This document shows positions 6,653 through 7,507 of a stretch of DNA of 37,895 bases, piece by piece. The position numbers and the translations under genes were made by a program. The stretch is from an uncultured bacterium (lineage in GTDB: Bacteria; Patescibacteriota; Minisyncoccia; Phycocordibacterales; Phycocordibacteraceae): contig CAVXAH010000001.1 in the NCBI GenBank assembly GCA_963759775.1, positions 104,787 to 142,681 of the forward strand, written 5' to 3'. The notes below the pieces were generated by a model. That model saw only the letters and a program-made list of their open reading frames with translations, was not told the DNA's origin and made no database searches. How positions within the stretch are numbered: position 1 is the stretch's first letter; each line of letters starts with the position of its first letter.

Positions 6653-7012
6653 TTATTGACCAAAGCGGAGCATCTCTTTGAGAGCCGCTCCTCCGCGCCG
6701 AAGGAGTCGTCGTGCCTTTCCTCTTGAGCGACGTACTTCGCGCACAAGCTCGTCGCGTACTGAGTCTACTGCCGCCTCTAAGGTCTCACCCAATGCTTCT
6801 GCACGGAAAAGAGTGCCGTCTATGGTGAGGTTTCCTTCTACTCTGTATTTCGCTCCCGCGCGCTCCACACTCACCGACTCTTCAATCTCGCAGGTAAGTG
6901 TTGCTGACTCATCCTCGCTTGTAAACTTGCGTAGTGCTTCCATTTTCTCCTCAATCAGTGCTCTAGAGGCGGTAGAGAGCTTGTGGTGTGTTGCTTTGAT
7001 AGTGAGGTTCAT
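6653..7012 (-). CDS. hpf: ribosome hibernation promoting factor / RaiA family
   Basis: MNLTIKATHHKLS...YRVEGNLTIDGTLFRAEA is typical of the S30AE/HPF family. The true start is the ATG abutting the element, and the MRPRPISNG extension is translated repeat sequence. Confidence 0.8.
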   Translation of the reverse strand: MNLTIKATHHKLSTASRALIEEKMEALRKFTSEDESATLTCEIEESVSVERAGAKYRVEGNLTIDGTLFRAEALGETLEAAVDSVRDELVREVRRSRGKARRLLRRGGAALKEMLRFGQ

Positions 7013-7125
7013 CCCGTTAGAAATAGGACGCGGACGCAAAAATATTGCGGCCGAACCCTATTCGATAAAAGCTGGTAAATAATCCCGTATCACGACCCCG
7101 ACAGCGTCCGCGATTTCTAACGGGA
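7013..7125 (-). mobile_element. MITE-like short element A (113 bp), same termini as the GIY-YIG cassettes
   Basis: Termini are CCCGTTAGAAAT (7013-7024) and ATTTCTAACGGG-A (7113-7125). Internal GCGGACGC/GCGTCCGC extends the stem. TTCAT flanks both ends (7008-7012 and 7126-7130). Confidence 0.7.
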
Positions 7126-7130
7126 TTCAT
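7017..7130 (-). CDS. element-spanning micro-ORF (37 codons) MNPVRNRGRCRGRDTGLFTSFYRIGFGRNIFASASYF
   Basis: The frame is open from the duplicated ATG (7128-7130) to the TAA inside the distal terminus, 4 nt before the hpf ATG. The peptide is conserved with that of element C. Confidence 0.4.
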   Translation of the reverse strand: MNPVRNRGRCRGRDTGLFTSFYRIGFGRNIFASASYF

Positions 7131-7161
7131 ACGAGACAGTATAGCATTTGATCTGTTTTTA

Positions 7162-7386
7162 TTACGAAATGGAAAATATTTTGTTTGGGGAGCGGAATCC
7201 CGCGACGAGCCGAAGTTTCCCCGGTACCACTTTCAATTCGCGCGCGAGGACGACTTTCACGCGTTCATTTGCAAGGTTTTGTTTTGCTGGCTCCTTCACT
7301 GCGATAGAAAACGTCGTTTCGTCTACCCTCTCAACCTTTTCGCGCTTCGCGCCAGGCATAACCTTCACCTTCACGTATCCACTCAT
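7162..7386 (-). CDS. DUF167 (YggU-family) protein
   Basis: The 74-aa sequence MSGYVKVKVMPGAKREKVE...LKVVPGKLRLVAGFRSPNKIF is characteristic of DUF167. Confidence 0.75.
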   Translation of the reverse strand: MSGYVKVKVMPGAKREKVERVDETTFSIAVKEPAKQNLANERVKVVLARELKVVPGKLRLVAGFRSPNKIFSIS

Positions 7387-7502
7387 CCCGTTAGAGATAG
7401 GGTACGAGCGTAGATGAACGCATCGGACTCCCATCGTGATTAGATCTTATAAAAACGGCATACCGTCGATCCTGTGTGCCGTGCCCGCTATCTCTAACGG
7501 GA
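7387..7502 (-). mobile_element. MITE-like short element B (116 bp)
   Basis: Termini are CCCGTTAGAGATAG (7387-7400) and ATCTCTAACGGG-A (7490-7502). CTCAT flanks both ends (7382-7386 and 7503-7507). Confidence 0.7.
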
Positions 7503-7507
7503 CTCAT
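7391..7507 (-). CDS. element-spanning micro-ORF (38 codons) MSPVRDSGHGTQDRRYAVFIRSNHDGSPMRSSTLVPYL
   Basis: The frame is open from an ATG that overlaps the glutaredoxin-like stop (ATGA) to the TAA 4 nt before the DUF167 ATG. Confidence 0.35.
   Translation of the reverse strand: MSPVRDSGHGTQDRRYAVFIRSNHDGSPMRSSTLVPYL

Follow-up and report, generated by a model that had tools for sequence, protein, structure and literature searches.

Results

Two short inserts at the start codons of DUF167 and hpf

The window, by which we mean the whole 37.9-kb stretch of DNA that was analyzed, carries on its minus strand a glutaredoxin-like gene followed by DUF167 and hpf. Short inserts, A and B, are found at the start codons of hpf and DUF167, and further copies (C, E1, and E2) lie elsewhere in the window. 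The features are as follows (TIR, terminal inverted repeat; ATG1 and ATG2, the old and the rebuilt start codon).

4312–4589, plus strand: element E1, a 278-bp full copy at the junction of murA and a small ORF
4995–5271, plus strand: element E2, a 277-bp full copy at the def start codon
6653–7012, minus strand: hpf (HPF/RaiA, PF02482), the host gene downstream of A
7008–7011, minus strand: downstream TGAA of element A, second copy of the 4-bp duplication
7012–7125, minus strand: element A, a 114-bp putatively non-autonomous copy at the hpf start codon, with the 13-bp TIR TCCCGTTAGAAAT...ATTTCTAACGGGA
7017–7130, minus strand: putative relay micro-ORF of A, 37 codons, opening at ATG1 and closed by a TAA within the right TIR
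7126–7129, minus strand: upstream TGAA of element A (4-bp target duplication; a single TGAA in the empty site of the relative L121)
7138–7146, minus strand: extended −10-like box TGCTATACT, from sequence and alignment, 7 nt upstream of ATG1 of A
7162–7386, minus strand: DUF167 (PF02594), the host gene downstream of B, with its stop at 7162
7382–7385, minus strand: downstream TGAG of element B; the regenerated DUF167 start ATG2 is 7386–7384
7386–7502, minus strand: element B, a 117-bp putatively non-autonomous copy at the overlap of the glutaredoxin stop and the DUF167 start
7391–7507, minus strand: putative relay micro-ORF of B, 38 codons, opening at ATG1 and closed by a TAA within the right TIR
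7503–7506, minus strand: upstream TGAG of element B; ATG1 (7507–7505) overlaps the glutaredoxin stop TGA (7506–7504)
7504–7749, minus strand: glutaredoxin-like gene, the host gene upstream of B
30972–31088, plus strand: element C, a third short copy at the start of a DoxX-like gene, 81% identical to A

Element A separates the DUF167 stop (7162) from the hpf start (ATG 7012–7010). The insertion targets are A↓TGAA for element A and A↓TGAG for element B (arrows mark the insertion point), and the upstream side of both elements keeps the old start codon. Thus, the original hpf start ATG1 (7130–7128) is made up of the A at 7130 and the upstream TGAA, and the regenerated start ATG2 (7012–7010) of the terminal A of the element (7012) and the duplicated TG. 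As the terminal A and the duplicated TG rebuild the downstream ATG, the reading frames of hpf and DUF167 are left untouched. In both elements the TAA of the micro-ORF lies 4 nt ahead of ATG2.

A first-pass annotation of this DNA had assigned to A and B the same 12-nt termini as to the GIY-YIG cassettes and lengths of 113–116 bp. The common termini were found again; the repeat, however, is a perfect one of 13 bp and the elements measure 114 and 117 bp (7012–7125 and 7386–7502) because the adjacent T...A pair is included. This 13th base belongs to the element because the empty sites lack it, and copies of the C/G type give ATGAAC↓...↓GTGAA. The stem of A proposed beyond the termini was also borne out: folded as single-stranded DNA, A forms a long hairpin that is prolonged through CGCGGACGC/GCGTCCGCG. 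The z-scores of the single-stranded DNA hairpins are −5.7 (A), −4.3 (B), and −5.0 (C).

Neither A nor B contains a transposase gene. Each has only an ORF of 37–38 codons, and these micro-ORFs gave no family match beyond the residues encoded by the repeat. Rfam gave no match at the elements, either over the whole window at the gathering threshold or at E values up to 1 over 6950–7560; a group I intron at 7805–8095 is the only Rfam match in the window. ARAGORN found no tRNA, and a consensus promoter and terminator scan found nothing relevant at the elements.

Empty and filled sites in related genomes

In L121, the closest relative found (hpf 94% identical at the amino acid level), both sites are empty and the genes are intact without the inserts. 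The B site reads ...GAGGTATGAGTGGGTAC with a single ATGA overlap (empty-site sequence GAGGTATGAGTGGG), which is the empty glutaredoxin/DUF167 junction that the first-pass annotation had predicted. The A site reads ...CCCTATGAACCTCACT (empty-site sequence TATGAACCTC) and TGAA is present once. Both sites are also empty in the relatives L123 and L124, and the A site of L122 is filled by a related copy with 87% identity to A, whereas the flanking genes of L122 and the window are only 66–69% identical. The site of E1 is empty in L123 and filled in L122, and that of E2 is empty in both. A and B are confirmed as real, precisely bounded insertions, and the opposite case, with inserts fixed in all relatives and no polymorphism, is excluded.

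Further copies in the window

The termini CCCGTTAGARAT and ATYTCTAACGGG have 10 exact matches in the 37.9-kb window, and these form five inverted pairs (4313–4588, 4996–5270, 7013–7124, 7387–7501, and 30973–31087). With up to two mismatches 12 matches are found where 4.9 are expected, a number that was reached in 0 of 100 shuffles. Element C has the same orientation relative to its host gene as A, is flanked by an imperfect duplication (TGCG/TGAC), and contains an ORF from an ATG at 30967 to a TAA at 31081–31083.

The cassettes E1 and E2 have their termini and the duplication in common with the short copies A, B, and C. In E2, flanked by TGAA at 4991–4994 and 5272–5275, the GIY-YIG ORF (5014–5274, 86 aa) shares its frame with the host ATG1 (4990) and its stop TGA overlaps the regenerated def ATG (5271–5273). 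E1 is flanked by TGAA at 4308–4311 and 4590–4593, and a 1-nt insertion in its nuclease gene shifts the frame of the C-terminus. Both cassettes are each other's closest relatives (90.6% identity vs. 84% to the copy in L122).

A family with 13-bp termini and a 4-bp target duplication

The termini of the family can be written as a 13-bp TIR [T/C]CCCGTTAGARAT ... ATYTCTAACGGG[A/G], which is conserved across hundreds of copies among the matches listed, and are flanked by a 4-bp target duplication of the consensus TNNA, weakly R-TNNA-Y. TATGAACC is an example of a TNNA target, and a right-end-to-left-end junction, as expected of excised circles or tandem intermediates, would read ...TCTAACGGGATCCCGTTAGA.... 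In a scan of public genomes a left end was located 57–292 bp upstream in 98 of the 126 right-end matches listed. The paired copies among these matches come nearly all from MAGs labeled as Patescibacteria, and the matches listed in other phyla are unpaired and chance-like. Neither short nor full copies were found in the viral contigs of IMG/VR, which gives no indication of carriage by phages.

A metagenome scan that was unbiased with respect to the flanks gave at least 127 elements. Among the 127 listed, the 4-bp duplication is exact in 74 and matches in three of four positions in 17 more; the first position is T in 67 and the fourth A in 69 of the 74. Altogether 53 of the 127 have no exact duplication, and ∼10% of the listed copies share a recurrent left flank (GGG)ACYTG↓T and lack the duplication. 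At the terminal pair, 60 elements have T/A and 59 have C/G. The largest size class is 275–278 bp, and nothing above ∼290 bp was seen among the matches listed. The family also includes nested or tandem insertions. The interiors are extremely diverse, with conservation only at the termini, and the host genes are many and unrelated to one another.

Start codons (A↓TGAA) are the site of around half of the listed flank-unbiased metagenome copies, an ATG or GTG being restored there by the terminal A or G of the element; other listed copies sit in −35 hexamers (TTGACA). Among the listed elements with a TGAA duplication an A or G precedes in 32 of 32 and an ORF of at least 60 aa follows in 29 of 32, whereas at background TGAA sites A precedes in 28% and only 3.8% are start-like. 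The bias toward start codons and −35 boxes could reflect purifying selection in compact genomes instead of targeting. We had also considered the ATG itself as target, with a 5-bp duplication (ATGNN). This was rejected by the flank-unbiased scan, which instead gave the 13-bp repeat with the 4-bp TNNA duplication, start codons making up only around half of the listed copies. Neither the duplication and regeneration of the start codon nor the 4-bp TNNA duplication had been part of the first-pass annotation.

The GIY-YIG nuclease of the full copies

The only gene in the full copies codes for an 86-aa single-domain GIY-YIG nuclease (PF01541 covers residues 1–71 of 86, E = 1.7e-17). In 10 of 10 full copies it points the same way as the downstream gene, and its stop codon is contained in the right end or overlaps with it. 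The right repeat supplies the last six codons and the stop (FLSLTG*). The protein is represented by more than 3,600 clusters, with lengths of 86 aa or of 94–95 aa, the longer forms beginning with MNPVRD, and the C-terminal FLSLT is invariant across them. As the right repeat encodes this invariant C-terminus together with the stop, gene and repeat form one unit across many CPR lineages.

An AF2 model consists of a bare GIY-YIG fold and a C-terminal helix and resembles the structure-specific nucleases HIGLE, Slx1, and UPF0213, I-TevI being a weaker match. A sequence search of the PDB gave only UPF0213 (1zg2, E = 4e-4), and in NCBIfam nothing was above the cut-off, so that the nuclease can be placed no finer than GIY-YIG/UPF0213-like.

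Translation through the inserts and the hpf promoter

In A, B, and C an ORF opens at the duplicated start codon and closes with a TAA that precedes the rebuilt start codon by 4 nt, which suggests a translational relay. The inserts might be tolerated because translation would be relayed through them: ribosomes would begin at the old start codon, would translate the 37–38-codon ORF, would halt at the TAA in the right repeat (TAACGGGATG), and would re-initiate 4 nt further on at the rebuilt ATG. In case of B the start would be coupled to the glutaredoxin stop through the ATGA, and in case of A, with a near-leaderless hpf mRNA, it would be found right at the 5′ end of the message or close to it. 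The full copies may be expressed likewise, with the nuclease ORF in frame with the host start (MNPVRD...) and its TGA overlapping the rebuilt ATG.

The micro-ORF of A is supported by a family-wide excess of open frames: among the 98 start-codon copies listed, 44 have no stop within the element in the frame set by the old start codon and one has none in the +1 frame, as compared to 13.8% of shuffled interiors with an open frame, an excess that is inflated by kinship among the copies. In the same 98 copies the distance between ATG1 and ATG2 modulo 3 is skewed (49/26/23), and the subfamily of A and C has one orientation relative to the host gene in seven of seven copies. The other 54 of the 98 have internal stops and no relay ORF, and the relay is therefore not a general requirement; translational coupling through the element as a universal feature was rejected, as it applies to the 44 copies only.

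An extended −10 box is conserved 7–9 nt upstream of the ATG (TGCTATACT in the window, TGCTATAAT in L121, and TGTTATAAT in L122). Thus, hpf probably has its own promoter, and from these alignments we infer that the box at 7138–7146 is this promoter and gives rise to a leaderless or near-leaderless mRNA. A scan for two-hexamer consensus promoters did not call the box, so that the leaderless promoter rests on the conserved TGnTATAnT boxes of the alignments. With a promoter of its own upstream of hpf, A would sit at a gene start and not at an internal cistron junction. The first-pass annotation had placed both inserts at consecutive junctions of one operon, which probably does not hold for A.

Discussion

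A and B, and C as well, are in all likelihood non-autonomous members of a family of DNA transposons of very small size, and this family is widespread in Patescibacteria (CPR). A and B are small and devoid of a transposase gene, have terminal inverted repeats and a target-site duplication, occur in multiple copies, and show presence/absence polymorphism, as is characteristic for MITEs. The proposal of the first-pass annotation that the inserts are MITE-like relatives of the GIY-YIG cassettes is thus upheld by the shared termini, the target-site duplication, and the many further copies.

How these elements are mobilized is a different question. We tentatively propose, with a confidence that falls just short of an even chance, that the 275–278-bp cassette can transpose autonomously, with the 86-aa single-domain GIY-YIG nuclease as its only protein. 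It would represent a new class of prokaryotic insertion sequence and the smallest one known, which inserts into start codons or, in a sister type, into −35 boxes, borrows the promoter and the start codon of the host gene, and returns the ribosomes to it via the stop codon in the TIR; A and B would be its non-coding derivatives. The nuclease is the candidate mobilizing enzyme of the full and the short copies, and might recognize the hairpin or cruciform formed by the repeats and make staggered cuts at TNNA. Against this role, characterized GIY-YIG enzymes leave overhangs of 1–2 nt, not 4 nt, and they are not known to rejoin DNA by strand transfer or ligation.

The latter point also speaks for the alternative that an unlinked conventional transposase moves the short copies, and perhaps the cassettes, in trans, the GIY-YIG gene being a passenger or an addiction or homing module. 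Moreover, cut-and-paste elements of the DDE type are classically recognized by terminal inverted repeats and a duplication that is short and weakly palindromic, as R-TNNA-Y is here. Nevertheless, a transposase-bearing version was not found, as in 1.5 Mb of element-rich DNA no repeat pair lies 450–4000 bp apart and the nuclease cassette is the largest class. The invariant nuclease C-terminus and stop encoded by the right repeat argue against a mere passenger, and the related Ssn nucleases specifically recognize repeats that flank their own genes (PMC11893778). We therefore consider a transposase acting in trans to be unlikely.

Still less probable in our view is that the inserts are chiefly DNA or RNA structures that benefit the host, be it as attenuators, as sites of RNase processing, or in the translational regulation of hpf and DUF167, and that are retained for this benefit and not as selfish DNA. 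The stable hairpins, their placement exactly at expression signals such as start codons and −35 boxes, and the higher conservation of A than of the flanking genes between the window and L122 would fit such a role. It is, however, difficult to reconcile with the closest relative found, which does without both inserts, with the extreme diversity of the interiors, with host genes that are unrelated to each other, and with the missing Rfam family match, and the target duplications and the nested or tandem insertions point to transposition.

The first-pass annotation had regarded B as a GIY-YIG cassette with an internal deletion, in which the peptide YAVFIRS would be left over from the GIY motif. 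Deletion derivatives do exist in the family, as some short copies of other genomes, for example, L014, L155, and L033, keep the leader of the cassette, its ATG, and the sub-terminal TTTCCTATCTCTAACGGG. But blastn with B (word size 7) finds only the termini and gives no hit to E1 or E2, BLASTP aligns only the repeat-encoded MSPVRD, and the terminal 23 nt of B match a short copy of the hairpin type (L093), which makes this origin of B very improbable. Least of all do we expect the cassettes to be free-standing homing endonuclease genes that home into one conserved target, because, despite the classic homing-endonuclease fold and although two diverged genomes carry A at one and the same hpf site, with higher conservation than in its flanks, the protein consists of nothing but an 86-aa catalytic domain and lacks a separate DNA binding domain, the insertions precede many unrelated genes, and the terminal repeats and the 4-bp duplication are not products of homing.

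The T4 proteins I-TevI, Seg, and Mob resemble the cassettes in their GIY-YIG catalytic fold and in being selfish genes between host genes. In contrast, the GIY-YIG homing enzymes have a long linker and a DNA binding domain (∼245 aa, as compared to 86 aa in total here) and one long specific target with neither terminal repeats nor a duplication, whereas here both are present and many unrelated host genes are hit. With the mobE/gene 60 bypass cassette, T4 also offers an earlier example of an insert that is associated with a nuclease and that ribosomes must get past.

Among known systems, Ssn/NTS (Chenal et al. 2025, Nat Commun; CDD cd10448) comes closest. Ssn nucleases are single-domain GIY-YIG proteins that bind and cut single-stranded DNA beside hairpin repeats flanking their own genes, and the NTS-ssnA-NTS layout has itself been likened to an insertion sequence (PMC11893778). 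Both systems have a single-domain GIY-YIG protein of similar size (∼90 aa and, here, 86 aa), and in both the gene is bracketed by inverted copies of a hairpin-forming repeat that is also scattered without the gene (here A, B, and C). Nevertheless, there are clear differences. The published SRM HGTCWYN(0-2)YYVSBRHN(0-5)WNVSBRGN(0-2)RNCYNB has no match on either strand of the window (shuffle mean 0.28), our repeats are the two arms of one element and not self-contained hairpins of 20–50 nt, and the best solved folds for the nuclease are Slx1, HIGLE, and UPF0213. In addition, that report describes no target duplications, empty sites, insertion into start codons or −35 boxes, repeat-encoded C-terminus, or members from Patescibacteria (PMC11893778).

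Bacterial MITEs, for example, Correia/CREE in Neisseria, RUP, ERIC, and the Rickettsia palindromic elements, are likewise small, transposase-less, multi-copy, hairpin-folding elements with terminal inverted repeats and a short duplication; they lie within genes or at the borders of genes and are transcribed together with them. The Rickettsia elements also preserve host reading frames, but by in-frame insertion inside genes and not at the start codon. Moreover, where the parent of a bacterial MITE is known, it is an insertion sequence of the DDE type, and none is reported to land on and regenerate start codons or to have a GIY-YIG-only parent; a review from 2024 mentions neither (PMC10969869). 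IS200/IS605 and REP/RAYT share with the present family the minimal size, a small hairpin-recognizing nuclease, and abundant non-autonomous palindromic derivatives. These systems, however, depend on HUH Y1 transposases, which act through covalent intermediates, and their insertions lie 3′ of a fixed tetra- or pentanucleotide with no target duplication, whereas here GIY-YIG is the sole ORF and 4 bp of the target are duplicated. In the full-text literature we found no published description of the repeat or of GIY-YIG elements with terminal inverted repeats in CPR bacteria; GIY-YIG "insertion sequences" have been reported in CPR rRNA genes (PMC11270868).

If the GIY-YIG protein moves the elements, this nuclease class would be added to the short list of those driving prokaryotic transposition, and a mobile-element explanation for Ssn-type nucleases with flanking repeats, so far speculation, would be at hand. 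In genomes that are very compact, the parasite enters those signals that are most sensitive, start codons and −35 boxes, and the gene that is hit survives since the signal is rebuilt with the element's own terminal base. The 13-bp repeat and the small nuclease are a candidate sequence- or structure-specific tool, and the insertion polymorphisms could serve as strain-level markers for uncultured CPR bacteria. Concerning annotation, many database entries of the nuclease begin at the host start codon (the 94–95-aa MNPVRD... forms), and the inserts also give rise to spurious micro-ORFs and to artefactual N-terminal extensions of host genes (such as ...PISNGM...).

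Repeat pairs and empty sites

By scanning the window for exact matches we found the 12-mer CCCGTTAGARAT and its complement ten times, a count that was not attained by any shuffled window. The ten matches form five inverted pairs, which bound three short copies without a nuclease gene (A, B, and C) and two full copies with a GIY-YIG nuclease gene (E1 and E2):

4312–4589, full copy E1 at the murA/small-ORF junction; 12-mer pair 4313–4588; junctions ATGAAT...ATGAA(G/A)
4995–5271, full copy E2 at the def start codon; 12-mer pair 4996–5270; junctions ATGAAT...ATGAA(G/A)
6653–7012, minus strand, hpf, last in gene order, after A
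7012–7125, short copy A; 12-mer pair 7013–7124; junctions ATGAAT...ATGAAC
7162–7386, minus strand, DUF167 gene, between B and A in gene order
7386–7502, short copy B; 12-mer pair 7387–7501; junctions ATGAGT...ATGAGT
7504–7749, minus strand, glutaredoxin-like gene, first in the minus-strand gene order, followed by B
30972–31088, short copy C; 12-mer pair 30973–31087; junctions ATGCGT...ATGACT

Read along the downstream gene, all five copies have the layout ATGNNT CCCG...CGGG ATGNN. The single-stranded DNA of A, B, and C is predicted to form long hairpins (z −5.7, −4.3, and −5.0, respectively), and an Rfam search matched none of the three to any family.

Relatives for the comparison of sites were contigs encoding hpf homologues. 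In the closest one found, L121 (hpf identity 94% in amino acids and 85.6% in nucleotides), neither A nor B is present: the B site reads ...AAACAAGAGGTATGAGTGGGTAC, with the single ATGA overlap of glutaredoxin stop and DUF167 start that the first-pass annotation had predicted for an empty site, and the A site reads ...TGCTATAATAGCCTCCCTATGAACCTCACT. The relatives L123 and L124 lack inserts at both sites as well, and L122 (hpf 74% identical in amino acids) has a copy resembling A at the same hpf start. At the E2 site neither L122 nor L123 has an insert; at the E1 site L122 has one and L123 has none. As filled and empty alleles can be compared in these relatives, the insertions are seen to be precise. 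The duplicated target is TGAA for A, E1, and E2 and TGAG for B, and the T adjoining CCCG is absent from the empty site and therefore belongs to the element. The two MITE-like inserts proposed at the glutaredoxin/DUF167/hpf junctions are real, and the reading of A and B as mobile elements is strongly supported.

Copy A (7012–7125) is 87% identical to its counterpart in L122 (684–800), compared with 69% for the flanking hpf and 66.5% for the glutaredoxin-like gene, and the much closer relative L121 lacks copy A. Possible explanations are that related copies inserted repeatedly at this start codon, that the copy was transferred between lineages, or that constraint acted together with precise loss.

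Distribution and insertion sites

Public genomes were scanned with the right end plus ATG as query, and 98 of the 126 matches listed are paired with a left end 57–292 bp upstream. Among the matches listed, paired copies occur in MAGs labelled Patescibacteria, from a wide range of lineages (Saccharibacteria, Doudnabacteria, Kerfeldbacteria, and various Parcubacteria groups), in MAGs labelled no further than 'bacterium', and in three with a Planctomycetota label; matches from other phyla have no partner end and appear to be chance hits. The three contigs with Planctomycetota or Sedimentisphaerales labels (L030, L053, and L075) have paired copies of 103 bp and twice 57 bp at start codons, which points either to a family range wider than Patescibacteria or to mis-binned contigs. 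Conservation is confined to the termini and the interiors are very diverse.

Because this query forces an ATG at one end, metagenomes were also scanned with both termini and no required flank, which gave at least 127 elements. Among those listed, 60 have T/A and 59 have C/G as the base pair adjoining the 12-mer on the outside, and 74 of 127 have an exact 4-bp duplication. These duplications have T at position 1 (67 of 74) and A at position 4 (69 of 74), with a weak purine...pyrimidine preference on either side; the commonest are TGAA/TTCA (32), TAAA/TTTA (16), TCAA/TTGA (8), and TCCA/TGGA (5). Start-codon copies of the C/G type read ATGAAC...GTGAA, so that the 13th base pair lies within the repeat and the rebuilt start codon is GTG.

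The listed copies with a TGAA duplication have A or G in front in all 32 cases, and an ORF of ≥60 aa follows in 29, whereas only 3.8% of the background TGAA sites in the same DNA are start-like. Copies with a TTGA duplication lie inside −35 hexamers of canonical promoters (TTGACA-N16–18-TATAAT-like) in at least eight clear cases (two copies in L136, and L185, L197, L199, L225, L236, and L237); their terminal pairs are C/G or T/A, and the −10 box keeps its link to the downstream hexamer copy. Judged from the sequences, this pattern may stem either from targeting or from selective survival in compact genomes. In L014, L019, L074, L134, and L204 (here 6132–6246 and 6252–6366) copies stand in tandem with nothing but the duplicated target between them (e.g., ...CGGG ATGAT CCCG...); the rebuilt start codon (ATGAA in L014, L019, L074, and L204) or the duplicated site beside the element received a second insertion. 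A nested insertion is found in L246 (1390–1760): the leader of a GIY-YIG cassette with degenerate termini (CACGTTAGAGAT ... ATCTCTAACGTG) contains a 72-bp short copy whose duplication is CTTA. L245–L254, from 10 samples, show this arrangement at the same locus.

In about 10% of the copies a left flank (GGG)ACYTG directly precedes the terminal T or C (L025, L026, L027, L042, L061, L101, L102, L104, L115, L137 at 7474, L195, and L230). These copies are without target duplication and upstream ATG, often have a −10-like box 6–16 nt further upstream, and the recurrent flank GGGACYTGTCCC is a near-palindrome.

Full copies and their nuclease

The elements fall into classes of about 60–130 bp and 275–278 bp, and no repeat pairs 450–4000 bp apart were found in the 1.5 Mb collected. 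The larger class carries a gene for a GIY-YIG domain protein of 86 aa (PF01541, E about 1e-17), for which a database search returned >3,600 clusters of 86 aa or 94–95 aa. In the 94–95-aa entries gene callers begin at the host start codon, and the N-terminus of the long forms, M[N/S/I]PVRD..., derives from ATGNNT plus the left repeat. The C-terminus ...KNRLKRFLSLTG, with FLSLT invariant, is encoded by the right repeat (TTC CTA TCT CTA ACG GGA TGA). All ten full copies are co-oriented with the downstream host gene; in six the nuclease ORF shares the frame of the host start codon and its terminal TGA overlaps the rebuilt ATG, and in four the ORF ends ...GASYL at a TAA within the right repeat. The AlphaFold model (pLDDT 84) is most like the structure-specific nucleases At-HIGLE, UPF0213 BH0048, and Slx1 and less like I-TevI.

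E1 and E2 are 90.6% identical and both are 84% identical to the L122 copy, which fits a duplication within the lineage of the window. Compared with E2, E1 has a 1-nt insertion near codon 66 that puts the C-terminus out of frame; the shifted frame continues across the right repeat (...PISNG) and joins the 100-aa ORF downstream of it in a fused ORF of 215 aa (4244–4891, plus strand). E1 is probably degenerating. Immediately upstream of E2 the window is about 85 bases longer than L122 and L123, and a local duplication of ~30 nt (84%; 4824–4854 and 4941–4971) involves the 3′ end of the small ORF.

The first-pass annotation had also taken B for an internally deleted GIY-YIG cassette. This is not supported, as only the termini are common to B and E1/E2 and the alignment of the B peptide to the nuclease is limited to the repeat-encoded MSPVRD. 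Some other family members are decayed deletion derivatives (e.g., L014 and L155), and B is not demonstrably one of them.

Translation of the host genes

In A, B, and C an ORF runs from the old start codon upstream of the insert through the element and stops 4 nt short of the rebuilt ATG, at the TAA within TAACGGGATG. Among the 98 distinct start-codon copies listed the old-start frame is open in 44, compared with 1 of 98 for the +1 frame and 13.8% for shuffled interiors, and the start-to-start distance modulo 3 is skewed (49/26/23). Copies of the A/C subfamily have a single orientation relative to the host gene (7 of 7). In B the glutaredoxin stop still overlaps the old start codon (ATGA), and ribosomes might pass from glutaredoxin via the micro-ORF to DUF167 by termination and re-initiation. 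Such a relay cannot be universal, since 54 of the 98 copies listed have internal stops. We infer this relay translation, as we do the enzymology of movement.

A conserved extended −10 box (TGCTATAAT, TGCTATACT, or TGCTATAGT) lies 7–9 nt upstream of the old start of A and E2 in the window and in relatives, which suggests that both elements are downstream of near-leaderless mRNA 5′ ends; the 5′ AUG would now open the micro-ORF in A and the nuclease ORF in E2. Many window genes have a −10-like box (TAYANT, often with upstream TG) 6–9 nt before the start and no Shine-Dalgarno sequence, with close boxes at the starts 7749(−), 4990(+), 7130(−), 12065(+), 22427(+), 24720(+), and 35155(−). This suggests that leaderless mRNAs may be frequent in this organism.

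Relation to known systems

Of the described systems, the closest are the Ssn nucleases, a family of single-domain GIY-YIG nucleases of about 94 aa, which cut single-stranded DNA beside hairpin repeats (NTS/SRM) that flank the nuclease genes and are dispersed through the genome, a layout likened by the authors to an insertion sequence (Chenal et al. 2025, PMC11893778). Patescibacteria, target duplications, and start codons go unmentioned in that paper, and the SRM pattern has no match in the window. A 2024 survey of CPR rRNA-gene insertions described GIY-YIG-encoding inserts belonging neither to the group I nor to the group II introns, and many short (<200 bp) unexplained inserts (PMC11270868); these might belong to the same family as the window elements. 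A 2024 review of prokaryotic MITEs contains nothing comparable, and literature searches for the repeat sequence and for GIY-YIG with MITE, TIR, or TSD found no description. The elements are new members of a family that seems to lack an earlier description. It joins known ingredients anew, namely MITE architecture and a small Ssn-like GIY-YIG nuclease with flanking repeats; insertion is into start codons and −35 boxes with the signal regenerated, the terminal repeat encodes the nuclease end, and the full form measures only about 275 bp.

Neighboring features

At 7805–8095 on the plus strand, a group I intron (Rfam RF00028, 58.5 bits) interrupts an apparent tRNA gene (tRNA-like sequence about 7846–8140) just upstream of the glutaredoxin-like gene; ARAGORN called no tRNA anywhere in the window. 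A 42-nt repeat, CTTCCGGGGCTTTTTGTTTTTCGAGGATGCGACCGGGAGAAA, is a repeat family distinct from A, B, C, E1, and E2, and its three copies (71–95% identical) lie downstream of this intron-containing region (8163–8204 and 8229–8270) and near 9450 (9448–9489).
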